From: a virus
Length of the DNA stretch: 58,322 nt
Virus record (IMG/VR): IMGVR_UViG_3300034069_001746
Direction: 5' to 3' (one strand)
Under the pieces are notes generated by a model. That model saw only the letters and a program-made list of their open reading frames with translations, did not search any database and was not told the origin of the DNA. The translations under genes and the position numbers were made by a program. The first letter of the stretch is position 1; every line of letters begins with the position of its first letter. Below, piece after piece: positions 7,865 through 45,654 of this stretch.

Positions 7865-10219
7865 ATGCTGAACGATGATCATCCCTACATCGGTAACGTT
7901 CAAGCTGATCCCCGGCTTATCGGGGTACCTAATGTCTTTTCACCTTTTACCCAATTCAACAGTGCTCCTCGCATTGCGATGTTTGGTCATCATCTTGCCC
8001 AAACTATGGTTATTGACAAGCCTGAGTTTAACAAAGCGTTCACAGGCATGGAACATCACTTAATTGATTACACGTTTAACTCTTCAAAACGTGATCATTT
8101 GTGTGAAGTAATTGCTGTTATTCCCAAATACAGAGAGCCATTGATCAATCGTGATGTGTGTCCTCAGTTTTATGCAATTGTACTGACGTTGGATGAACCC
8201 AATGGTGAACAACGCCTAGACTATTTCACCGTGGACCGCTACTTCATGGGACAGAATGGGTTTGGCTGGATTCCCACATTTGCTAATGTAGGTTTGGTGA
8301 AGCCTGGTGAAATCATCGAAAAACATATTCCCATTACTCATTCACCCGCCGTCCGCGATGACCAATATTGTCTGGGAGCCAATCTTAACACCATTTATGG
8401 ATCGTTCCCTGAGACCATTGAAGACGCTTTTATTATCTCTGAAAGTGCTGCAGCAAAGCTCACTACTCAGCAAGTTTCGCAAATCACGATTAACTGTCGC
8501 CAAGATCGCCGACCCTTGAATCTGAATGGTAACGAATACGAAGATAAGTTTCTTCCATCGCTAGGTTCTCATGTTCGTGATGATGGAGCATTGTGCGCTT
8601 TTCGTCCTATTCATTGGACCACCTGTATTGCTGATGGAGATCCTGAGGCTCTACGGGAACCTCTGCCTTTTCAAGACGATATCATCTACATCGAACCCGG
8701 TGCAAAGATTGTTGATATCACCTTTAACATCAATCGTGCTAAACTTAACAGTAACAATTACTACGAACAAGCCCTTCAGTACAATGTTAACAACACCCGG
8801 TGTTGGGAAGACATCTACAATACTTACATGAAATATAAGGGGAAATATAAGCTCACCCCTAAGATGTCAACCTTGGTTACTACGTCTATTTACCGTATGA
8901 TTGCCCAAGGAACACATGTACCTTCATTCCAAAATGATGAGGTGTTTCGTAAGGCTGCTCGTAACTTTGATGTGGAAGGCGTTAACGGTCATACGGTTGA
9001 TTTCATGCAAGTGGTGGTGGCGTACACGGTTCCTCGCTTTGTCAGTAACGGCAGCAAGCTTAGTGATTTAGGCGGCGCGAAAGGCGTGGTGGGTAAGATC
9101 TATCCTGATCACGCCATGCCGGTTGATGAATATGGTATTCGAGCCGATTTGTGGATTGATGCTAGTTCGCCAGTCAGCAGAAACAATCCTGGTCAGCTGT
9201 ACGAAACCGGGGTTAATCGCATCAACGAATTTGTTCGGCGTAAATGTGAAACGGTGTATAAGGTACAGGGTTCTGACCCAGCGTTTGAAACGTTGATGGA
9301 CTGGTACAACGATGTTAATCCTAATTACGCCAAGCTTATTGAAGATAATTGCCATAACTTTAAAGACCGCGCCAATGTTGTTGAAGACGCTATTGCGGAT
9401 TCACCTAAGCTTTGGATTCCGCCGTTTCTGAATTCATTAACGCCAAAGCCTGATGATTTTTGGCATGCGTTGAAAAACATTAAAGCATGGGCAACTAAAT
9501 GGGACGTTAAACCATCACGCGTTACGTACAAATCTCTTCAGGCTGATGGAAGCTGGAGAGAATTTGTTACCGAATCAAAATTCTCGATTGGATCAAAATA
9601 CGTCATTCATCTCCATAAGCTTCCCGAGATCTTTGCCCCAGGTCCTGCAGCGGTTAACCATATCGGCGTCCCTACTAAATCGACGTTTGAAACAAAACAT
9701 TACCCGGTCACGGTTAACCCTTACCGCTTCGGTGAAGACGAATTACGGGTCATGGCCATGGACACCGATATCAATGAAGTGACTAGGTTCCAGAACTTGT
9801 TTTCTAATTCACCCCTGGGTGTTAACACAACCATTCAAGCGTTGTTGACCACGCCTGATCCCACCCGTATTAAACGAATCAACGTTAGCAACGGTGATCT
9901 GTTACGAAGCAGTGCGGTGTTGAAACTGTTTCACAGTATCACAGCGACACTCGGGATTGAAACCAAGAACACTAAAACAGAACCCTTTGATGTTCCTGAT
10001 TGGCTAGCTGATTCTATCTGGGCTACTGATTTTGAAAAGGGGATTGATGGAAGAATTAGCGGAAGTGATGATGAAGAGCGATCCATTAAACGTGCCACTG
10101 CTAAACGTGGTAAAGTACAAAAGATGATCGAGTCGATTGACACGGATAGTGAACTAGATAGTGATGATGAAGAGCTAGAAGAAACCCTTGATCTAGCAGA
10201 AGATGGTAGTGCGGACTAA
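7865..10219 (+). CDS. Non-virion RNA polymerase beta-like subunit, C-terminal part (phiKZ gp71-73-like)
   Basis: RpoB C-terminal motifs IEDAFIISES, GSKLSDLGGAKGVV, MPVDEYGIRADL, SRNNPGQLYE and RFGEDE; acidic tail. Confidence 0.9.
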   Translation: MLNDDHPYIGNVQADPRLIGVPNVFSPFTQFNSAPRIAMFGHHLAQTMVIDKPEFNKAFTGMEHHLIDYTFNSSKRDHLCEVIAVIPKYREPLINRDVCPQFYAIVLTLDEPNGEQRLDYFTVDRYFMGQNGFGWIPTFANVGLVKPGEIIEKHIPITHSPAVRDDQYCLGANLNTIYGSFPETIEDAFIISESAAAKLTTQQVSQITINCRQDRRPLNLNGNEYEDKFLPSLGSHVRDDGALCAFRPIHWTTCIADGDPEALREPLPFQDDIIYIEPGAKIVDITFNINRAKLNSNNYYEQALQYNVNNTRCWEDIYNTYMKYKGKYKLTPKMSTLVTTSIYRMIAQGTHVPSFQNDEVFRKAARNFDVEGVNGHTVDFMQVVVAYTVPRFVSNGSKLSDLGGAKGVVGKIYPDHAMPVDEYGIRADLWIDASSPVSRNNPGQLYETGVNRINEFVRRKCETVYKVQGSDPAFETLMDWYNDVNPNYAKLIEDNCHNFKDRANVVEDAIADSPKLWIPPFLNSLTPKPDDFWHALKNIKAWATKWDVKPSRVTYKSLQADGSWREFVTESKFSIGSKYVIHLHKLPEIFAPGPAAVNHIGVPTKSTFETKHYPVTVNPYRFGEDELRVMAMDTDINEVTRFQNLFSNSPLGVNTTIQALLTTPDPTRIKRINVSNGDLLRSSAVLKLFHSITATLGIETKNTKTEPFDVPDWLADSIWATDFEKGIDGRISGSDDEERSIKRATAKRGKVQKMIESIDTDSELDSDDEELEETLDLAEDGSAD

Positions 10220-12317: not shown

Positions 12318-12382
12318 AGATGAAAGGAGAGGATCACCAATCCTCTCCTTTTCTCTATCCTCTTAAAGGAAGTTTAAGCGCT

Positions 12383-14950
12383 ATGGCTATTACAATCTGG
12401 ACAACGGCCTTAAGCTTCCGTCTTAAGGTCAATCGTAAAGGTGAAATTATTGACACGCCGTTGTCAATTATGGAGTTCACTAACAAACTCACTCAATGGT
12501 TGTGGGATAATAAAAACCGGCGTCAAGTCCTTGGAAATGAGTATTTTAAATATGATTCCAAGAATGAGATGTGCTATTTTCCTAAGTTCGAACTCGATAA
12601 CTTTAAAGAGTTTCTCACTCGCCGTCATGTGAAATTTGACATTCAGCATTTACCTGGTGAAGAAGGCCGTCACACTAATTTCATGATGCTTCCTCACATT
12701 GGTTACAAAAATGATAAACAAAAGAACGCTATTGAGTTTTTAACTAACAATGACTCAGGTCCATTACGAGGATTAGCGCTCCAAACTGGGTTGGGCAAGC
12801 TGCAACCCTTACATTCTAAGATCCTAACTCCTGATGGTTGGGACATTATGGGGAATATGAAAGTAGGAACCAAAGTTGTTGCCTGGGACGGAACAACATC
12901 CACGGTGGTAGGTGTTTACCCACAAGGTGTTAAGGACATTTATCAAATTACGTTTGAAGATGGTCGTAAAACTGAATGCGGACTTGAGCATCTGTGGAGG
13001 GTGTATTACGTTCAGTGGAAAGAAAAATGGCGAGTTATTACTACTGAGCAAATTATTCAATATCTTACTCAGCCTACCTATCGTGCTCGGATGGGTATCC
13101 AACTTCCCTTACCACCGATAGTACCTGATGTAGATCTACCCATTGATCCTTATGCTCTTGGTGTATTGCTGGGCGATGGCACTATCACTCAACAGAGTAT
13201 ACATGTATGTAAACCAGATCAGTTTGTTAAAGATGAATTGGATAAGGTACTTTATCCTTATTACAGAACTTCTCCGTGGCATGCTGATGAAAAGTCATAC
13301 ACTATTTCAAAACTAAATGCTGAAAAATCTCTTCATTTTGTATTGGAAGATCTAGGTAGTAAGGGATGTGTTAGTCACACCAAATTTATTCCTGATGTGT
13401 ACATGAATGCTTCAGCTTCTCAAAAGCTTGCTCTTCTTCAAGGACTGATGGACACTGACGGTACCGTAAATATAACCGTTGGTAGAAATCAGACTGAAAA
13501 GATCAAAGGCAAAGGCGGCACTCTTTCTTATTGTTCTACTAGTAAACAAATGGCAGAACAAGTTCAATATCTTGTTCGTAGTCTTGGTGGTCTTGCTCGA
13601 ATCTCTATACGCAATCCTTTCTTTACTTACAAAGGAGAAAGAAAAGAAGGCAAGCGAGCTTACCAAGTCAATATTAGGTTTTCTAACCCTACTACGCTGT
13701 TTCGTCTACCACGTAAAAAAGAGCGTACATCAGATGATTATCAATACGCCGATCGCTTGCGTGCTCGTATTGTTAGTGTCGAATTAGTAGGTAAAGCTGA
13801 GGCACAGTGTATTGAAATCGATCATCCTGATCATTTATATATCACTGATAACTATATTGTTACTCACAACACGGTTTCAACCATCTGGGCTTTGCAACGA
13901 CTACATCGTCGCGCCATGATTACCATGACGTCGAGGTTAGAGCAATGGGTAAAAGAAATCGTCGCTTATACCACTCTTGAAGAAGACGATATTTACGTTA
14001 TTCAAGGCGTGGGCTCCTTGACAAAGTTATTTACCCTTATTGATCAGGATCTTAAGCCTAAAATCATTTTATCATCAACTAAAACTATCCAGCTTTATTT
14101 ACAATACGGACCAACATATCAGCACCTTCCTCATCCCACAGAAATGTGTGAAAAACTGGGTATTGGTATTTGTGCTATTGATGAGGCGCATGAGTGGTTC
14201 TACACCAATTTCCTGATTGGAATGCTACTCAATCCTGCAATCTTTATTCCCATCACCGCCACCTTTGCAGCTAATGAACCTTTTACCAAAAAGGTCTTTG
14301 ATCAGTTCTTTCCCAAAAACATCCAGTTTACTGGGGGAGAATATGAAAAATATGTCGAAGTATATGCCTATGAATATCGTAGTGGGGGGTTTCTTATCAA
14401 GCCTTACACTTATAGTGGTCCCAGGGGTTATAGTTCCCAAATCTTTGAGAAATGGTTAATGGGGAGGGGACGAAAGTTTCTTGATCCTCTTATTCAAGAT
14501 GCCATTATTCCTATTGTTCGAGAACATTACATTAACCTTGCTGAAGAAGGAGAGAAGTTTTTATTCCTTTGTTCGTCTAAAGCATTATGTGATCATCTAG
14601 AAGGAGTGTTTAGAAGAGTTTTCAAAGACAAAACCGTTAGTGTGTTCTATTCTGGTATGCCAACTACTGTACTAGAACGGTATGACATGATCTTGTCTAC
14701 GCCTGGATCTGCTGGTACGGGTCGCGACGTGAAGAAACTGAGAACATGCTTTGTGTTTGAAAGTGTCGAATCTGAAACACGTAATCTTCAATTCATTGGT
14801 CGTCTACGAGGACCCCCTTCGATGATGAATACGCCTGTCTTTACCTATCTTTATATAACTGCTATTCCTTCTCACAATCGCGTAGCGAGTGCCCGAGCGT
14901 TGCTCTATGGACCTCGAAGCGTGAAATTTATTCATCGGAGTCTGTCATGA
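12383..14950 (+). CDS. SF2 DNA helicase (phiKZ gp75-like) containing an intein
   Basis: Walker A LQTGLGK/T (split by the intein), DEAH, TAT, GTGRDV and QFIGRLR. The true start is probably ATG 12383, because 12323-12351 is a terminator-like hairpin. Confidence 0.85.
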   Translation: MAITIWTTALSFRLKVNRKGEIIDTPLSIMEFTNKLTQWLWDNKNRRQVLGNEYFKYDSKNEMCYFPKFELDNFKEFLTRRHVKFDIQHLPGEEGRHTNFMMLPHIGYKNDKQKNAIEFLTNNDSGPLRGLALQTGLGKLQPLHSKILTPDGWDIMGNMKVGTKVVAWDGTTSTVVGVYPQGVKDIYQITFEDGRKTECGLEHLWRVYYVQWKEKWRVITTEQIIQYLTQPTYRARMGIQLPLPPIVPDVDLPIDPYALGVLLGDGTITQQSIHVCKPDQFVKDELDKVLYPYYRTSPWHADEKSYTISKLNAEKSLHFVLEDLGSKGCVSHTKFIPDVYMNASASQKLALLQGLMDTDGTVNITVGRNQTEKIKGKGGTLSYCSTSKQMAEQVQYLVRSLGGLARISIRNPFFTYKGERKEGKRAYQVNIRFSNPTTLFRLPRKKERTSDDYQYADRLRARIVSVELVGKAEAQCIEIDHPDHLYITDNYIVTHNTVSTIWALQRLHRRAMITMTSRLEQWVKEIVAYTTLEEDDIYVIQGVGSLTKLFTLIDQDLKPKIILSSTKTIQLYLQYGPTYQHLPHPTEMCEKLGIGICAIDEAHEWFYTNFLIGMLLNPAIFIPITATFAANEPFTKKVFDQFFPKNIQFTGGEYEKYVEVYAYEYRSGGFLIKPYTYSGPRGYSSQIFEKWLMGRGRKFLDPLIQDAIIPIVREHYINLAEEGEKFLFLCSSKALCDHLEGVFRRVFKDKTVSVFYSGMPTTVLERYDMILSTPGSAGTGRDVKKLRTCFVFESVESETRNLQFIGRLRGPPSMMNTPVFTYLYITAIPSHNRVASARALLYGPRSVKFIHRSLS
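12800..13870 (+). mobile_element. 357-aa intein with LAGLIDADG homing endonuclease, class-3 type
   Basis: Inserted at GLGK|T. Starts LQPLHSKILTPDGW; block B CGLEHLW; LAGLIDADG motifs ALGVLLGDG and LQGLMDTDG; block F AQCIEID; ends IVTHN with +1 Thr. Confidence 0.92.
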
Positions 14951-33232: not shown

Positions 33233-33573
33233 AAAGCATTTCCTCGATAAACATCATGGTGACACAACATGGACATCCAACCAGGATGATCTTTTCTCTT
33301 TCCCTTAGCTCGTTCTATCACCATAGGCTTTTTGACCACTTGCTTAGGTACATCACCTACCATAGGTAAAGGAGATACCAGATCATGTTTAATGATGATC
33401 TCTTCCATGGAGGAACGAGGAGCTACCTCCACATAAGAAGGGGGAGACCAGAATTGATTAATAGCTGGTATTAATACATCACTGTAATACCACAGAGTAA
33501 AACCAATCAAGGTTAAAAAGAGCACCATTCCACTGGTCACCCTCACCACTGTATTACTTAAAACCTTTCTCAT
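33220..33573 (-). CDS. Single-TM protein; candidate Rz-like inner spanin
   Basis: N-terminal TM segment; overlaps the start of the lipoprotein gene. Confidence 0.4.
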   Translation of the reverse strand: MRKVLSNTVVRVTSGMVLFLTLIGFTLWYYSDVLIPAINQFWSPPSYVEVAPRSSMEEIIIKHDLVSPLPMVGDVPKQVVKKPMVIERAKGKRKDHPGWMSMLCHHDVYRGNALCKK

Positions 33574-34039
33574 GACTCATCTCTTGTTTTTTCTTCAAAA
33601 AGAGGATTGTTCATAATAAAGACTTTATCTTCAAAATTGACAAATCTCTTTATGGATATTAAAATAAGAATAGTCTCTCACCACCAGTCCTATAACAGGA
33701 CCAGTGATGTTTTTAAATTTTTGTAAAAGAATCAAACAAGGGTAAAAACCCTTTCCCCGCACCCCTTTCCCATGTTTATCTCTTCTAATGAGATAGTCTT
33801 TGATAAGACTATCTATCTCTTTATATCTCTTTATATTTTCTCCTCCCACCCTTTGCCTATTAAATCATCCCTATAGGGGATTCCTATAGAGGAGTGAGTT
33901 AATCATTAAATAAGAGAAGACAAAAGCATCACTTTATATCAATAACTAAACAAGTAGATTCTATTTGTTTTTACTCAAACATATCTTCTCATACATTATG
34001 GGAAACTACTTAAAAACCTTAAAGGATGTTGCGTGATCT

Positions 34040-34564
34040 ATGATACACTTACCTGACTTTAACACCTTAGTTAATCAGATTACCCAGTGGGGAAAAGACA
34101 GAAACATTATTGGTGAAGGAAAAGCTAAAGACCAGTATCTCAAACTGATGGAAGAATTTGGAGAGATACTGGAAGCTAAAGTTAATAGTGATATTAAAGA
34201 TGCCATCGGTGATAGCATGGTGGTCTTGATCATGCTGGCAGGTATTGAAGGTTTGACGATCGCTAAACAGCATGTGTCGCTGGAAAAGGGATGGTCTGTT
34301 TTAACAAAGAATAGTTTTATCGCCCTGAGTAAACTTGCTCAAGCCATTGCTAAAGATGATAAGCCTGTTTTACAGGACTTACTCGATGATCTGGTTGCTA
34401 TTTTGACAATGTGGGCAACAGGTCACCTAATGGACATTGAAGAATGTATGGATACAGCCTACCAGGTTATCAAACATCGTAAAGGCGTGTTGTTCGACGG
34501 GGTGTTTGTTAAAAGTGATGATCCTACCTATGTAGAGGTACTTGCTAAACTGCGCAATAAATAA
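34040..34564 (+). CDS. MazG-like nucleotide pyrophosphohydrolase
   Basis: WGKDRNI, KLMEEFGE, DAIGD, AYQVIKHRKG...GVFVK. Confidence 0.85.
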   Translation: MIHLPDFNTLVNQITQWGKDRNIIGEGKAKDQYLKLMEEFGEILEAKVNSDIKDAIGDSMVVLIMLAGIEGLTIAKQHVSLEKGWSVLTKNSFIALSKLAQAIAKDDKPVLQDLLDDLVAILTMWATGHLMDIEECMDTAYQVIKHRKGVLFDGVFVKSDDPTYVEVLAKLRNK

Positions 34565-34610
34565 AAAGAATAGGTCAAAGGGTAAGAGAGGAGGCGTAAA
34601 GCCTCCTCTC

Positions 34611-35162
34611 TTATTCCTTGAAAGGTTTAGGACTTAGGTGTTCAGTTAAGCGATCGAATCGTTCCTCGATGCGATCCCGCATGAGATCGACCTTACTTTC
34701 CAGGCGACCGTTGTTGCTTTCCAGAATCTCAACCTTGCCTCTCAAGAGAGCGGCATTTAATTTAAGATCACCGATCTCGTTTTGGGTTGTTTTAATAGCA
34801 GAAGAGAATTGATCGTTGATAAGGGACTGGTTATTTTTGTGGTGAGCAATTTTGTCATCGAGCCGGGTAAACTCTTTATCAAGATATTCCACTGAACGAA
34901 AAGAAGCAGATACTTTTTCTAGCTGTTCTACCCGGTGTTCAGTGGGAGAGTTTCGTTCCTTGTCAGCGGCTTTACGCTTTTCAAAGACTTCTACAATTGC
35001 CTTGATCATGGATAAAATAGCATTAACACCGATCACCGCTGCAACAATCCCACCAAAGACTAGCTTGTAAGCACTCCATTCGTCATACGCAGGAGCAGTG
35101 GGAGGAGTGGTGGGAATAAGAATACTAGTCGACGTGGTATTACCGGTCATGGATTCCTCCAT
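34611..35162 (-). CDS. Single-TM coiled-coil protein, possibly lysis-related (holin/antiholin-like)
   Basis: TM LVFGGIVAAVIGVNAILSMI plus coiled coil; lies between the endolysin and spanin genes. Confidence 0.4.
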   Translation of the reverse strand: MEESMTGNTTSTSILIPTTPPTAPAYDEWSAYKLVFGGIVAAVIGVNAILSMIKAIVEVFEKRKAADKERNSPTEHRVEQLEKVSASFRSVEYLDKEFTRLDDKIAHHKNNQSLINDQFSSAIKTTQNEIGDLKLNAALLRGKVEILESNNGRLESKVDLMRDRIEERFDRLTEHLSPKPFKE

Positions 35163-35437
35163 GATTAACAGCCATCGTCATGGTTGTGTCTTCTTGTGGT
35201 TAAATAGACCTAGTGATCCTGTCAGCTAAGTCTGTGGTTACCATTTGGGGCAATCACCCCAAAAGAACAATGTCTTTTAACGTGATTGCAAATTCCCTAG
35301 CACCTATCTTACCTGAGACATCTTGTGTCATCGAAGTGATATTAGCACTATATTGGGAGAGTGTTGTTTTAGCTCTTACATATAGAGAGCCATAACATAA
35401 CAATATATTTTTTGTCTTATCACCTTCTATAGTTATA

Positions 35438-36067
35438 TCAGCAGTTGGTTAAGTGACCCTGATGTAAAAAGCCATGATACGACCCACAGACAATCGAACC
35501 TGCTCCAGCAGCACAGGTGTAACCATTCTTGTCAACATGTAATGTACCGTCCTCGGGACGTCCGTGTCGCACCCAGCAACAATGAACATCATCTTGAGGT
35601 ATGGTGCAATTCAATGCTCGTGAATCAATGACCCATTCGCCCCCTGGAGTTTTAACCACTAAACAACGACCATCACTCCCTGCTTTAAAGCTGCCTACTT
35701 TACGATCAACAAACCAAGAGGCGTTCCAACAAGCACCTACTGGTGCTGTTTGGATAGACATAGTCTCACCTGTATCAAGTCGTCGGTATTCAGCCGGTGC
35801 AAATAACTGCCAGGTGTCATGTTCCTGAAAAGCATAACCACACCCACAATGACTAGGCCAGCGCGAATCGTTGTGGGAATAGCTGTCACCAGATGTGACA
35901 TTCTTGGGACCTTGTCCAATGGCTGTTTTAGCATCATGAAGACTATACTTACCCGGTCGTAAAGGACAATTACCCTCACTATATCGACGCAGATAAAGAA
36001 GGCTAAACCCAGTAGGTTCAATAAAAAACACTTTAATCACAAAGCAATCCTTTTTACACAACACCAT
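35438..36067 (-). CDS. Cys/His-rich putative metal-binding protein
   Basis: CGCG; C-terminal HCCWVRHG...TCAAGAGSI...YHGFL. Confidence 0.6.
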   Translation of the reverse strand: MVLCKKDCFVIKVFFIEPTGFSLLYLRRYSEGNCPLRPGKYSLHDAKTAIGQGPKNVTSGDSYSHNDSRWPSHCGCGYAFQEHDTWQLFAPAEYRRLDTGETMSIQTAPVGACWNASWFVDRKVGSFKAGSDGRCLVVKTPGGEWVIDSRALNCTIPQDDVHCCWVRHGRPEDGTLHVDKNGYTCAAGAGSIVCGSYHGFLHQGHLTNC

Positions 36068-39675: not shown

Positions 39676-41175
39676 ATGGATTCTGATCTGTTTAGTAGGC
39701 AAAGGAATATGCTTGAATATTTATACAAGTTTTTCTTAGTACCTGGTGTTTTCACCGCCGATCTTATCACTGCCACCAGCTACGTTATTATTTCTTTGTT
39801 TTTGATGCGGCTTGCTTGGCACCGTGATGACATCAAGAAAAGTAAACTGTTTTGGTTTTTCACACTAGCTTTGATGTCAAGAGCCTTTATTCATTGCTTT
39901 ATGGCGTTTAACACCGTTCGCAATCGGTTTGACATTCTGATTCCCACCAAGATTGTGTACGCCGTTTCATCAATTGGTTTGATTTACTTATTGTGGAAAG
40001 TGTTTCCTCAATTAATAAAGCTTCCCACCTTTGATCATTTAGCTACCGTTAACGCTCATCTTGAACAAACCATCGCTGAACTCACTGATGAAAAAGAACA
40101 GCACCTAAAAGTACAAGAAAAGCTGATTCAATCACAAAAGATGGAAGCAGTGGGTCAACTCACTGGTGGTATTGCTCACGATTTTAATAATTTACTTCAA
40201 GCCATTGGTGGTAATCTAGAGTTAATCAGGCGCAATCCTCTAAGTTCCAAGATTGATCGGTGGCTTGGTAACAGTATTGAATCGGTGGCGCGTGCGGCCC
40301 ATCTCACGGGTCAGTTGCTGACCTTCTCACGCGATCAAAAGCTGGACTTAAAAGAGATTTCTTTACTTACCTGTATGACCAATCTTAAAAACATGGTTAA
40401 CCGGGTAATGGGAATTGCCATCACCATTGTCATGGAAGACATTGACGATGTTATCATCTTTGTTGACCCTATTCAGCTAGAACTTGCCTTGCTTAACTTA
40501 TCGCTTAATGCAAGAGATGCCATTGTCGATAAAGGGACAATTACATTTTCAACCCAGTGCGATGATCACCATGTGGAAATCAATGTCACGGACACAGGAC
40601 ATGGTATCCCTGAGCCCATCGCGTCTAAAATCTTTGATCCTTTTTTCACCACCAAAGATATCGGTAAGGGCACTGGATTAGGGTTGAGCATGGTTCACAG
40701 CGTCATGCTTCAATTTGAAGGAGATGTTTACATTAAGCAAACATCCCCCAAAGGAACCACCTTTACTCTTAGTCTTCCTTTGGTAGCAAATCGTCCTGTT
40801 CCTGCCAAACACGATGTTGTTGTCGTCTCCGATCAAAAGCATGTGCTAGTGATTGATGATGAACGAGTGGTACGTGAAATTCTAGAAGACTTTGTTCAAG
40901 AAGCAGGGTACCGGGTAGATACGTGCGAGGATGGTGCTGAGGCATTAGTGTTTCTCAAAACAACCAAGCCTGATTTAGTTCTTTGTGACTTTGCGATGCC
41001 GATGATGACGGGTGATGAAGTGTCACGCGCTATTAAGATGATCTACCCTGATCTTCCTTTAGTGTTTGTTACAGGCTATGCAAAGAGCGACACCATGGGC
41101 GATCACCTGGTGCTAAAGAAACCCTTTGGCGCTGATAAAATCAAAGCTATCATTGAAAAGGCTTTACAACAGTGA
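39676..41175 (+). CDS. Hybrid sensor histidine kinase (3-TM ethylene-receptor-like sensor, HisKA, HATPase, REC)
   Basis: QKMEAVGQLTGGIAHDFNNLL, NARDA, DTGHGI, FFTTK, GTGLGL, REC domain VLVIDDE...CDFAMP...KPF. N-terminus aligns by eye with the ETR1 sensor helices. Confidence 0.92.
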   Translation: MDSDLFSRQRNMLEYLYKFFLVPGVFTADLITATSYVIISLFLMRLAWHRDDIKKSKLFWFFTLALMSRAFIHCFMAFNTVRNRFDILIPTKIVYAVSSIGLIYLLWKVFPQLIKLPTFDHLATVNAHLEQTIAELTDEKEQHLKVQEKLIQSQKMEAVGQLTGGIAHDFNNLLQAIGGNLELIRRNPLSSKIDRWLGNSIESVARAAHLTGQLLTFSRDQKLDLKEISLLTCMTNLKNMVNRVMGIAITIVMEDIDDVIIFVDPIQLELALLNLSLNARDAIVDKGTITFSTQCDDHHVEINVTDTGHGIPEPIASKIFDPFFTTKDIGKGTGLGLSMVHSVMLQFEGDVYIKQTSPKGTTFTLSLPLVANRPVPAKHDVVVVSDQKHVLVIDDERVVREILEDFVQEAGYRVDTCEDGAEALVFLKTTKPDLVLCDFAMPMMTGDEVSRAIKMIYPDLPLVFVTGYAKSDTMGDHLVLKKPFGADKIKAIIEKALQQ

Positions 41176-41498: not shown

Positions 41499-41574
41499 AG
41501 TCAAGTAGGTGTAACAGGGGGCATTCGCGCCCCCTGTTACGAATCCTATGATCTTAGTTATGTGACAATAAACC

Positions 41575-41631
41575 ATGAGAAGTGTAGATAGATTTAACAA
41601 GTTTTTTGGTCTTGTGAAAGTTTTTTATTAG
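41575..41631 (+). pseudogene. Orphan diverged 5' fragment of the SNF2 helicase gene
   Basis: Translates MRSVDRFNKFFGLVKVFY*, versus the helicase start MQFIERANKFFGRIKIK (8/16 identical). Confidence 0.75.
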
Positions 41632-41681
41632 AACTTATTAATAGTCAATCATTAGAGTTGATATGTAGCAGGACAGTTCTA

Positions 41682-42419
41682 ATGACTGAAAAGATGTGTA
41701 AGAAATGTAAAGAAACAAAGATCACAGAGGAGTTTCCCTTACATGGAGGGCTTTTGTGTAGAAAATGTAAAAGCAGACAAACTACAGAACAGCGATCGTC
41801 AGGAAATTGGGTTCCTCCCATTGGGTTTGTTGAACGCAGAATATTGTCGGGGATGAAATCAAGGTGTTATAACAAAAAAGAAGACAATTACCAGTATTAC
41901 GGAGGAAAAGAAGAAAATCCAACCTCTATTTGCGATAGATGGTTGGAAAGTAGTGATAACTTTATTGAGGACATGGGATACAGACCTTCCCCAAATCACA
42001 GCATTGAGAGAAAAGATCCAAATGGTAGTTATGAACCAAGTAATTGTGAATGGAAACTTAAAAAATTGCAGGCCAGGAATAAAACTAATAATGTGCTTTT
42101 AGAAATTAATGGGGAAAAAATTGTAGCGGCTGAAGCATCAGAAAAGTATGGATTAAAAGAATCTACGATTAGTGCTAGAAATAGGCGTGGTTCTAACGTT
42201 GATAAATCCGGATCAAATCTGATAGCTCCCCTTAGACAAGCCGATTTGTATGAGTATCAAGGAAGAAACTACAAAATTCAAGAACTTGCGGACATGGTAG
42301 GCGTTAAGCATGGTACTATGCACTACCGGCTAAAAGTAGTAGGAAAAACTGTCGAAGAAGCCCTTACTCAATCTAAAGATAATCGAGGAAGCTACAAAAG
42401 AAGTAAGCCAGTAGAGTAG
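41682..42419 (+). mobile_element. Free-standing HNH-type homing endonuclease gene 1
   Basis: MKSRCYN..YYGG...ICDRW...FIEDMGYRPS..HSIERKD.NG.YEPSNC.W...QARNK, HTH-like C-terminal repeats; AT-rich. ATG at 41682. Confidence 0.85.
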
Positions 42420-42445
42420 AGAGGGACATCCCTCTCTACTCTATG
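42412..42445 (+). terminator. Hairpin followed by TATG (late-promoter-like) upstream of the helicase
   Basis: TAGAGTAGAGAGGGA-ca-TCCCTCTCTACTCTA, with TATG at 42442. Confidence 0.65.
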
Positions 42446-42470
42446 ACATAACAGTTTGAGTAAAAAAGGC

Positions 42471-44522
42471 ATGCAATTCATAGAACGAGCCAATAAGTTT
42501 TTCGGTAGAATTAAAATAAAAGAAGCTGGTAATCAGGTTCGCATTACTGGTATTGATGGTACCATTATGCGCCAACATCTGAGTCGTGTTTTTGAAACTG
42601 ATCAGATTGCCAAGCTGATGTTTACCTCGATTACTGATACATCGATAACGCTTAACTCTTTCTTTATTCCAGACTTTATCTACATGCTGGAAGTTTTCAA
42701 AGAAAACCCTAAATGCCGGTGGGGTGCAAAGCGCACCGTGGATAAGATCATTCAAGGTATCATGAAAAATACATGGTACAAGATCACCATGCAACCGTTT
42801 AAACCTATGGTTGATCTAAAGAAAATGGATCGACTTAAATGGAAACCTCTTCAAAAACAAATAGATTTTCTTTCAACTTACGGTCATGTACTTCCAAAGT
42901 ACGATCTTAGAGGTTTCATTATTGCAATGATGCCTGGTCTCGGAAAAACGTTCGCAGATTTGTTATTGGCAACATGTATTATTCCAGACAGTGTCGCCGA
43001 AGTTAAAATCATCATCTCTCCCAAGAAAGCACTGCATTTAGTGTGGGAGAAAACAATCAACGAGGTATTTAAGAAACCTGTAACTTCTTGGGTCTGTGAT
43101 TCTGGCATCAAGATGCCCTTGGACAAAACAGAATATTACGTGTTTAACTTTGAAGCACTAGATAAAGCCATTGAACTAGGACGGCATCTGCTCTCAAAAG
43201 GTGTTCGTTATTTCACCATCGTTGATGAATCACACAATTTTGCTGACTATCGTTCCAACCGCACCCAAAAGCTGGTGCAGTTACAAACCCTAAGAGATGA
43301 TCTATATTTCATCTGGACGTCTGGTTCACCCATTCTTAAATCAGCTGCTGAGCTAACATCATTCCTTAAATGCTCGGATCCTCGCTACGACGACGATGCT
43401 GATCGTCGGTTCAAGCGTATCTTTACAGCAGCGCCTGGCCGGGCTAATCAGATCTTTAATCACCGTTTAGGTCAGATGATGGCGTTTCTGGCCACCAAGG
43501 AAAGACCTGATGATGAAAAGCCTATCATTAAAGAACTCCCCGTTAAACTTCCTCCTCAGATCGCTCATCGTTTCCTGATTTCCACCGTGAGAGAAGAAAT
43601 GAAGGAGTTTATCAAGAAGCGGTTGGAATTCTACAAAGAAAACATTAAAGAATACCAGATTATTGTTAGTAAGGGAATGACCTATCACGAAAGCAAGCTA
43701 AAGACCAGGGGAGAAAGAAGAGCTTTTGCCGAGTATCAGCAAAATGTAAAGATTATTTCTCGTGCTCCTGATCTCATGTTATCTGATCTCATGGCTTCCA
43801 CTAGAACCTATGAACGCACCAAACTCTTTCCATCGCTTCCTTCTACTGAACGTAGACCATTCCGTAACGCGTTATCGGCAACCAAGAATGTTAAGCTAAA
43901 GGTAAGAGGTGAGGCATTAGGTACTGTTCTTTCTAAGCGTCGTTCTGAATGTGCAGCGATGCTTGGGCTTTATTGTAAGCCTGAAGAGATCATGAAAGAG
44001 TCGTTATCAAAGACCCTGTTCTTTGCGTCTTCTATTCTTCCTATTCAAATGCTGGAGAAGAAGCTAACAGGGATGGGGTTTGAACCCATGTCGGTTTATG
44101 CTGATACCAACAGTCAGTTGACCCAAATCATTAATCGATTTGACAATGATCCTAATGCTAATCCTATTTGTGCTACTATGCAGTCGTTATCAGAAGCAGT
44201 ACCTGTTACGTCTGCCTCCACTGTAGTTTTGTTAAACAGACCTTACAGGCATGCACAGTGGGAGCAGGTAGTGGCTCGTGCTGACCGAAATGGTCAAAAG
44301 TACCGGGTTACGGTTATTGAAGTAACGCTGGACACCGGGGATGAGCCTAATGTGTCTTCTACAACTGATGCCATTCTAAGCAACGTTAGAGAACTCATTA
44401 ATGACATCGTTGGTAGTGAGTTCGCTGGACCAGATCCTAGCCAACGACAGATTCAGGAAGTCATAGACGCTTCCAAACAGGACCCCAACATTTCCATTTT
44501 AGATCAAAAATTGAATCTTTAA
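42471..44522 (+). CDS. SNF2-like SF2 helicase
   Basis: MPGLGKT, IVDESHN, SGSP, SLSEAV, EQVVARADRNGQ. Confidence 0.88.
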   Translation: MQFIERANKFFGRIKIKEAGNQVRITGIDGTIMRQHLSRVFETDQIAKLMFTSITDTSITLNSFFIPDFIYMLEVFKENPKCRWGAKRTVDKIIQGIMKNTWYKITMQPFKPMVDLKKMDRLKWKPLQKQIDFLSTYGHVLPKYDLRGFIIAMMPGLGKTFADLLLATCIIPDSVAEVKIIISPKKALHLVWEKTINEVFKKPVTSWVCDSGIKMPLDKTEYYVFNFEALDKAIELGRHLLSKGVRYFTIVDESHNFADYRSNRTQKLVQLQTLRDDLYFIWTSGSPILKSAAELTSFLKCSDPRYDDDADRRFKRIFTAAPGRANQIFNHRLGQMMAFLATKERPDDEKPIIKELPVKLPPQIAHRFLISTVREEMKEFIKKRLEFYKENIKEYQIIVSKGMTYHESKLKTRGERRAFAEYQQNVKIISRAPDLMLSDLMASTRTYERTKLFPSLPSTERRPFRNALSATKNVKLKVRGEALGTVLSKRRSECAAMLGLYCKPEEIMKESLSKTLFFASSILPIQMLEKKLTGMGFEPMSVYADTNSQLTQIINRFDNDPNANPICATMQSLSEAVPVTSASTVVLLNRPYRHAQWEQVVARADRNGQKYRVTVIEVTLDTGDEPNVSSTTDAILSNVRELINDIVGSEFAGPDPSQRQIQEVIDASKQDPNISILDQKLNL

Positions 44523-44569
44523 ACATATTGTTGGTACTTAGTATATGATCCCTAGAAAAGGATTTTTAT

Positions 44570-45379
44570 GTGAGTACCAACCAACCTACCGACATCCTTT
44601 GCGAAAAACACGACGTTCTTAAATACAGAGATTCAACGGGGCATCTGAGATGTCGAATATGCAAACGAGAATCTACGAATAAAAGATATCAACGGCATAA
44701 AGAATCTATTCGTGAAAAAGCGAATGAATCTCGTGATCCCATTTACACAATATGGGACGCAATCAATCAACGTTGTTATAATCCAAATTGTTCTGCTTTT
44801 ATAGATTATGGAGCTATTGGAACTTATCTTTTTGAACCTTGGAGAAGATTGCCGGGAGGTAATCTTGTTAAAAAAGAGAATGTTTTAAGATTCTCTAGAT
44901 TCAAACAATATATTTTGGAAAATCTAGGCCCAAAGAAAGAACAAAATTGGTCTATCGACAGAATTGATACATTGCAGTCTTACTTGCCAAATAATTTAAG
45001 GTGGGCTACTCCCAAAGAACAATGTAACAATCAAAAAACTAACAAGATTTACAAAGAATCAATACCTGATGACAGTCCTATTTATTATCCATACAACATA
45101 CTTAATACCATTGACGAATTTGCTAAACAAACCGGTATATACTTAATTGTAGTAAAATATCGTTACGCTCAAAATTGGGATGCCGAGTGGATATTGGACG
45201 ATGAATGGGATTGTCGGTATTTTATCTATGAAAACCACAAGTATAATTTAGCAGAATTATCTCTCATATCTAAATATCACTTTTTCAATGCTGGTTATTC
45301 CACTATCCAGGCAAGACTCAAATACGGATGGTCTGTAAAAGAAGCCGTTGAGAAGCCTCTTAGAGATAGCAGAGTATAA
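44570..45379 (+). mobile_element. Free-standing HNH-type homing endonuclease gene 2
   Basis: IWDAINQRCYN..YGAIG...WSIDRID....Y.PNNLRWAT.KEQCNN; C-terminal RLKYGWSVKEAV; AT-rich. Confidence 0.85.
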
Positions 45380-45386
45380 AGGGTGG

Positions 45387-45485
45387 GCTGGACCAGAACC
45401 GTCACAACGGCAATATAGTGAAGCCATTGATGCCTCAAAAGCAGATCCGATTGTTCTACACCAAGATTCTAAACTAGATTTGTAA
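45387..45485 (+). pseudogene. Orphan diverged 3' fragment of the SNF2 helicase gene
   Basis: AGPEPSQRQYSEAIDASKADPIVLHQDSKLDL* versus the helicase end AGPDPSQRQIQEVIDASKQDPNISILDQKLNL* (20/32 identical, both 99 nt); followed by hairpin 45487-45514. Confidence 0.9.
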
Positions 45486-45654
45486 AATAAGAGGAGGTTA
45501 ATTCCTCCTCTTATCCAATTTGTTGTTATTTTGTAGCTTTATTATCCAAGAGATTACAGTCATAAATAAAACTACTTAATGGTATGATCCGTTTTCAATA
45601 AGGATCGCTTATGCTGTCCCCCAAGCCCGTAATCAGTACAGATGTAATTTAACA

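Follow-up and report, generated by a model that had tools for sequence, protein, structure and literature searches.

How does a single phage helicase gene come to lie between two HNH homing endonuclease genes, each of which sits next to a displaced copy of one of the helicase's own ends? The question is raised by IMG/VR virus record IMGVR_UViG_3300034069_001746, a stretch of 58,322 nucleotides (hereafter 'the window', always at its full length), in which an intact SNF2 helicase gene is preceded by an orphan 5' end and an HNH gene (HNH1) and followed by a second HNH gene (HNH2) and an orphan 3' end. A preliminary description, made from the letters alone, proposed either two independent intron-less elements, each carrying a diverged replacement terminus, or a single HNH1-helicase-HNH2 cassette that had replaced the interior of a resident allele. 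We consider it highly probable that two unrelated free-standing homing elements invaded this gene at different times, one at each end; the matches of the orphans, the existence of single-ended loci and the HNH-free relatives described below all favor the first proposal.

The duplicated ends

The arrangement is real, with every element present in the order first described, from hairpin, TATG, orphan and HNH1 through a second hairpin and TATG to the helicase, HNH2, the second orphan and a terminator (Table 1). Eight of 16 residues of the orphan 5' end are identical to the helicase start and 20/32 residues of the orphan 3' end to the helicase C-terminus, and the two copies of the 3' end, at 44424 and 45387, have the 11-mer GCTGGACCAGA in common. 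Across all six frames of the window the orphans stand far above chance (BLOSUM62 scores of 50 for the 5' and 97 for the 3' orphan, the next-best score being 25 in each case), and both were recovered by a hidden Markov model (HMM) of other helicases from which the window's own was excluded (E 5e-6 and 1e-4). An independent Logan assembly is identical throughout the cassette, its five differences from the window all falling at 33475-35552, so the cassette is not a private assembly error. All three hairpins fold (z -4.8 to -6.0), but the first two were not flagged as terminators and have no U-tract, and for this reason 'terminator' is a putative label. The context of the resident TATG, GAATCCTATG, matches at 9/10 nt in L001, the nearest allele to the window (78% amino acid identity, syntenic on both sides), and each nuclease gene has a TATG of its own upstream (41662 for HNH1, 44544 for HNH2).

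Table 1. Features of the invaded helicase locus, in window positions
Feature	Position	Strand	Remarks
Hairpin after upstream 108-aa gene	41511..41540	+	z -4.8; no U-tract; probable resident terminator
Late-promoter-type TATG, resident	41547..41550	+	at -28; now 5' of the orphan and HNH1
Orphan (original) helicase 5' end	41575..41631	+	18 aa: codons 1-16 homologous, then 2 codons and stop
Possible hairpin over HNH1 ribosome-binding site (RBS) and ATG	41645..41690	+	TATG 41662 in loop; weak, z -1.4
HNH1, 245 aa	41682..42419	+	upstream TTG start at 41658 possible
Element-borne hairpin	42412..42443	+	15-bp perfect stem; overlaps HNH1 stop; z -5.6; no U-tract
Replacement TATG promoter	42442..42445	+	at -29 from helicase start
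Replacement helicase 5' end	42471..42518	+	codons 1-16; lowered L001 affinity reaches ~codon 40
Intact SNF2/DEAD-like helicase, 683 aa	42471..44522	+	phiKZ gp203 homologue; interior resident
Replacement helicase 3' end	44424..44522	+	32 codons plus stop
TATG, element-borne promoter candidate	44544..44547	+	at -26 from HNH2 start
HNH2, 269 aa	44570..45379	+	GTG start
Orphan (original) helicase 3' end	45387..45485	+	32 codons plus stop
Terminator-like hairpin after orphan 3' end	45487..45514	+	z -6.0; alone of the three with a T-rich tail

The HNH segments might instead be self-splicing introns, with the 'orphans' as exons. HNH-encoding group I introns have been described in jumbo phages (PMC11620839), and spliced small exons occur in ICP1. 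However, no Rfam intron matched (the only hit was a chance snoRNA at E 0.44), and the non-coding room is less than 100 nt on each side; moreover, the helicase is complete without splicing, and a second in-frame terminus with a promoter would not be carried by an intron. We give splicing hardly any credence.

Empty and invaded alleles

Searching with the protein recovered about 40 helicases (52-78% identity), whereas no relatives came from scanning viral_contigs with a single protein or from the genome_contigs scan. Eleven flanked loci have no HNH gene (L001, L003, L004, L037, L038, L039, L041, L061, L064, L068 and L149), and the duplicated ends looked for in such HNH-free relatives are absent at 11/11 of them. 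Three other loci are invaded. In L040 only the 3' end is affected, the order being helicase, hairpin, a 543-aa HNH2-clade gene, an 84-codon orphan 3' end and a terminator, and L065 has a 3' HNH gene only. L062, from another clade, is a second two-ended locus, with a 5' orphan, an HNH1 homologue, the helicase and a 3' HNH2-clade gene. Its 5' element contains no hairpin and the helicase restarts 2 nt past the HNH stop, so that the terminator and promoter attributed to the 5' element, while present in the window, are not a general feature. L067 combines an empty 5' end with a 3' end of the element type defined below, its contig stopping just past the gene. P0008, in which the helicase start resembles the window's replacement start, has no HNH gene and is at most a candidate donor lineage.

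Which copy is the resident end

Sequence comparison identifies the displaced copy as the resident end and the in-frame copy as foreign, strongly so in L040 and L062. The L040 3' orphan matches the uninvaded sister L061 at 221/255 nt (87%), against 148/255 (58%) for the in-frame end, and groups with L061 in the tree with support 99. Similarly, the L062 5' orphan agrees with the uninvaded L067 at 11/12 amino acids, against 6/12 for the in-frame start, and the promoter/RBS context is conserved upstream of the orphan. In the window, the 5' orphan matches L001 at 35/48 nt and the in-frame end at 30/48 (scores 60 vs 45, the former being the top score of this orphan among all homologues), and the corresponding 3' figures are 57/99 and 51/99 nt (scores 96 vs 82). 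These margins are small by themselves but agree in direction with the clear cases of L040 and L062, and lend modest support to the same polarity. The expectation that the orphans should match the uninvaded allele thus holds in L040 and L062 and, modestly, in the window.

Two copies of an end might also arise by local duplication at the insertion, either target-site-like or through illegitimate recombination, followed by neutral divergence, with no foreign end and no targeted homing. The 11-nt identity at the 3' junction is in keeping with this, and in yeast the transposition of WHO10 is accompanied by duplication of host 3' ends (PMC7282813). A non-functional copy would be expected to diverge faster than the working one, yet it is the orphans that are closer to uninvaded relatives; an element-type C-terminus is common to unrelated interiors, and nucleases related to one another are found again at the same end of the gene. 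L040 and L062 already contradict local duplication, which seems to us very unlikely.

One cassette or two elements

For the helicase interior (aa 41-590) the tree gives the syntenic, HNH-free L001 as sister (SH-aLRT 100); L001 ranks first in 10/14 segments of the interior, and 8, 11 and 3 at aa 1-16, 17-40 and 652-683. The interior is as close to L001 as are the flanking genes (52-74% identity) or closer, and therefore tracks its syntenic neighborhood. Comparing trees of the helicase middle and ends, as had been suggested, favors separate elements: the ends lose their affinity to L001 and the interior keeps it. Lowered L001 identity at aa 17-40 and 591-615 may mark co-conversion tracts or older events. 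Because invasions recur independently in related phages, the ends of the helicase have a history different from that of its middle.

These results bear directly on the second proposal, in which HNH1, helicase and HNH2 arrived as a unit, in the manner of a homing endonuclease gene (HEG) island, and replaced the resident interior while leaving both resident ends. HEG-islands with essential cargo and gene fragments have been described (PMC10055350), both in-frame ends of the window outscore the orphans against the P0007/P0008/P0015 clade, the P0007 helicase is followed by an overlapping 283-aa gene, and L062 shows that a second two-ended locus exists. The interior, however, falls with L001 rather than with the P0007 clade, and single-ended loci exist; in L062 the interior is unrelated, the 3' end is of a different type, and the nucleases are only 34% and 40% identical to those of the window. 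A composite cassette is largely refuted already for a distant donor, and we regard it as unlikely overall.

Evidence for separate gains of the two elements also comes from the 3' ends themselves. Five helicases have in common an atypical stretch that begins at motif VI and runs to the stop codon, the element-type end, and both of its signatures co-occur in exactly these five. The five tracts form one clade (97) and the interiors do not (approximately unbiased (AU) test p 8.6e-46; IQ-TREE, 18 taxa, 21 homologues left out), and an HNH2-type gene lies downstream in three of the four with visible downstream DNA. On the strength of these alignments and trees we see direct evidence that the gene end travels with the 3' nuclease across unrelated interiors. 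The four invaded helicases fall in four clades, each beside an empty allele. L062 and L067 are sisters with a common element-type 3' end, and only L062 has the 5' element, suggesting that the 3' element came first. The window's 3' element differs in that its end is not of the five-helicase type and its junction lies downstream of the L040 junction by ~53 codons. Both 5' elements (L062 and the window) lie just after the invariant KFFG motif, at codons ~13 and 16, and related nucleases at a common site are what would be expected if the HNH1 lineage targets the KFFG site. The locus therefore bears the marks of terminus-replacing elements, with empty alleles, discordant phylogenies of end and middle, and an endonuclease gene between each in-frame terminus and its displaced duplicate.

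Two histidine-less nucleases

HNH1 comprises an N-terminal CxxC/CxxC zinc finger, a His-less, putatively PacI-like beta-beta-alpha-Me domain and two C-terminal helix-turn-helix (HTH)-like modules; HNH2 has a zinc finger, a His-less, putatively PacI-like nuclease domain and a C-terminal module diagnostic of a jumbo-phage HNH clade. Both match phrog_3377, a PHROG HNH family (E 1.5e-43 and 2e-28), and a Pfam search gave no HNH hit for either. The canonical catalytic His at the end of beta-1 (I-HmuI type) is absent, with E-R or D-R instead; an invariant Tyr, Gln and Asn are present in both, and the catalytic-motif residues R, Y and N are kept. PacI, a known His-less, Tyr-using His-Me finger nuclease of group 20 (PMC5714182), is the best nuclease match to the predicted folds (Z 5.3, root-mean-square deviation 3.4 over 75 aa; Z 5.1, 3.0 over 74 aa), at 12-16% identity, a match that the tool itself would rate as weak. 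No significant match to either nuclease came from Foldseek (E above 0.8). The residue pattern of both nucleases fits the PacI-type His-less variant. The two are only remotely similar to one another (E 5e-5) and belong to different clades. The reciprocal best located relative of HNH1, its DNA-binding half included, is the 5' HNH of L062 (E 2e-36, 34% identity, sisters at 91).

The start of HNH1 has an unpaired fraction of 0.24 on the long transcript, compared with 0.50 on a transcript from the TATG in the loop, and by analogy with T4 endonucleases a hairpin may mask this start on the long transcript and be missing from the shorter one. The RBS-sequestering fold is weak for HNH1 (z -1.4), and that for HNH2 (z 0.1) is no better than chance. 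At 44568-44573 an out-of-frame ATG-TGA overlaps the GTG start of HNH2, perhaps through slippage by 2 nt from an ancestral ATG, or perhaps as a means of reducing expression. The 3' nuclease of L062 (7218-8837) is a 539-aa HNH protein with tandem zinc-finger repeats, for which the source called only a 290-aa gene (7965-8837); this repeat-expanded HNH type is also found in L040 and L065.

A model of terminus replacement

We infer a mechanism modelled on that of WHO elements (PMC7282813) and on intron-less homing in T4 (PMC2988022). The 5' element would consist of HNH1, hairpin, TATG promoter and new codons 1-16, and the 3' element of the new last 32 codons, TATG and HNH2. In a co-infection each nuclease would cut an uninvaded allele at a conserved site close to its own end, for the 5' element near the invariant KFFG (codons 9-16) and for the 3' element near the AGP codons or upstream of them. 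Repair would copy from the invaded genome, with pairing in the helicase body on one side and, on the other, in the orphan fragment or flank of the donor, so that the recipient would gain the nuclease gene and keep an intact helicase with a foreign, cut-resistant end. Its own end would be displaced outside as an untranslated or dead-end orphan, available later as a homology arm. The 5' element is also predicted to take over the resident promoter and to supply a new hairpin, TATG and start in its place.

Several observations weigh against this reading. The window's polarity margins are small, since identity to L001 is only 78% and synonymous sites are roughly half saturated. The L062 3' side and L065 have an HNH gene without a detectable orphan, and L064 has an element-type end without an HNH gene; decay or loss might account for these loci. 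L059 and most of the distant loci L070-L148 are HNH2-clade loci without a duplicated end. The fold matches to PacI reach only a Z of about 5, and HNH2 may be poorly expressed because of the out-of-frame ATG-TGA over its start.

It is tempting to speculate further that phiKZ-like jumbo phages host a widespread, hitherto undescribed class of intron-less homing elements with HNH nucleases of the His-less, PacI-like kind (possibly using a Tyr nucleophile), which invade either end of core genes with resistant termini, and that where a gene is doubly invaded (here at least twice independently) the two elements cooperate and the gene becomes a self-propagating island. We advance this only tentatively and think it somewhat doubtful. 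If true, cooperating two-ended invasion would be a concrete route to the origin of HEG-islands.

The helicase, its promoter and related loci

The helicase contains PF00176 (SNF2) and PF00271 (Helicase_C), both above the Pfam cut-off, and is homologous over its full length to PHIKZ203 (phiKZ gp203; 31% identity over 655 aa, E 3e-111), which is annotated as a structural protein; it is thus an SNF2/SF2 helicase of the phiKZ gp203 family. Its cultured relatives are phiKZ-like jumbo phages at ~30% identity, none above 34%, and phiKZ-type RNA polymerase subunits are also encoded in the window. In phiKZ, TATG is the motif of late promoters, required there but not enough by itself (PMC4666361). Found 22-33 nt 5' of the helicase start in 9/12 relatives with an undisplaced start, and at -28 and -29 before the window's orphan and intact starts, it is positionally conserved. 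A sigma-70 promoter scan gave no excess, and such a scan is irrelevant to a TATG system.

Many alleles (P0002, P0011, P0015 and others) contain full or mini inteins near helicase motif I, so homing elements of three kinds have attacked the gene (intein, 5' HNH and 3' HNH). Elsewhere in the window (12320-14950), an 876-aa helicase-like open reading frame is 52% identical at aa 152-522 to the N-terminal motif region, with its intein, of the L001 SNF2 helicase, and probably represents the same LAGLIDADG intein family in a second, different helicase.

A helicase with an element-type C-terminus and no downstream HNH gene (L064:4001-7102) is a candidate for nuclease loss after invasion, and the 283-aa gene overlapping the P0007 helicase stop (contig positions 3254-4105) may be a further putative 3' nuclease. 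Other genes have been affected as well. In L060 (4888-4950 and 5895-10457, both on the - strand) an HNH2-clade gene in opposite orientation lies between the 3' end of RNA polymerase beta and an orphan, accompanied by a hairpin, that is a diverged copy of the last ~20 codons of that subunit. A scan of 80 HNH loci for orphans gave one convincing new case, L069 (2867-2965 and 3821-4795), the others being low-complexity sequence, repeats or HNH remnants. In L069 an HNH2-clade gene lies between a ~25-codon orphan 5' end and a 324-aa gene, the start of which overlaps the 3' end of the HNH gene, a layout from which it follows that the HNH2 clade can also replace starts. By the lysis genes lies a phage-encoded hybrid histidine kinase/response regulator whose N-terminal domain resembles the ethylene receptor ETR1 (window 39676-41175; L068:1401-2909), duplicated in L001 (2387-3862 and 4365-5912).

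Comparison with known systems

The closest counterparts in mechanism are found in fungi. WHO elements at FBA1 in Torulaspora and Lachancea yeasts (Coughlan et al. 2020, PMC7282813) likewise pair a free-standing endonuclease with a replacement end that confers resistance, displace the old end, which is proposed to serve as a homology arm, and leave a chimeric host gene with discordant trees. They differ in their LAGLIDADG/intein-zinc-finger enzyme, in meiotic homing, in restriction to the 3' end and in forming tandem clusters (PMC7282813), whereas the elements described here have His-less HNH enzymes, reside in a phage and occur at both ends, the 5' element having to replace promoter and start as well. 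The phage elements lack the intein-like LAGLIDADG plus zinc-finger protein and the FBA1 target of the WHO family proper. Fungal mitochondrial mORF hybrids show the same order of foreign C-terminus, endonuclease ORF and native C-terminus (PMC3630166); examples are Allomyces macrogynus atp6 and Glomus atp6, atp9, cox2 and nad3, in which the native end matches relatives at 91-98% and the inserted end at 64-81% (PMC3630166). In contrast to our elements, those hybrids are organellar, use LAGLIDADG or GIY-YIG enzymes, affect the C-terminus only and are sometimes in-frame fusions (PMC3630166).

Among phages, T4 seg and mob intron-less homing also involves free-standing nucleases, resistance through allele difference (PMC2988022), and embedded or own late promoters with RBS-sequestering hairpins (PMC2988022), but these genes lie between other genes, their products cleave at a distance of hundreds to thousands of bp, and no displaced terminus has been described for them (PMC2988022). 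The nucleases themselves resemble PacI-like group 20 in the missing His and the invariant Tyr in the loop (PMC5714182), though PacI is a restriction enzyme and only 12-16% identical to them. Our literature search, whose coverage was incomplete, found no phage paper describing replacement termini and no two-ended precedent.

The locus extends to jumbo phages and to 5' ends the WHO/mORF 'third class' of homing element, which is distinct from both introns and inteins. Since an orphan preserves the sensitive allele beside the resistant one, the target of each nuclease can be predicted to within ~50-100 bp, which makes two uncharacterized His-less HNH enzymes directly testable. The termini of jumbo-phage core genes, it should be borne in mind, can be horizontally acquired, and annotation pipelines miss orphans and some HNH genes (one was mis-called in L062).

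In layout, the locus resembles the ICP1-like HEG-islands (Barth et al. 2023, PMC10055350), in which HEGs bracket essential phage genes and small fragments of cargo genes were noted and proposed as recombination substrates (PMC10055350). In those islands it is the bracketed cargo that moves, and the fragments were not recognized as termini that had been displaced (PMC10055350), whereas here the interior is resident and the elements lie inside the coding ends and were gained separately; HEGs stand on both sides of a core gene, but the cargo shows no sign of horizontal movement, its interior tracking the syntenic flanks (on sparse sampling). The locus thus has the layout of a one-gene HEG-island and works like the WHO and mORF elements while being a member of neither, and it offers both an explanation of HEG-island gene fragments as displaced termini and a stepwise route to HEG-bracketed genes.

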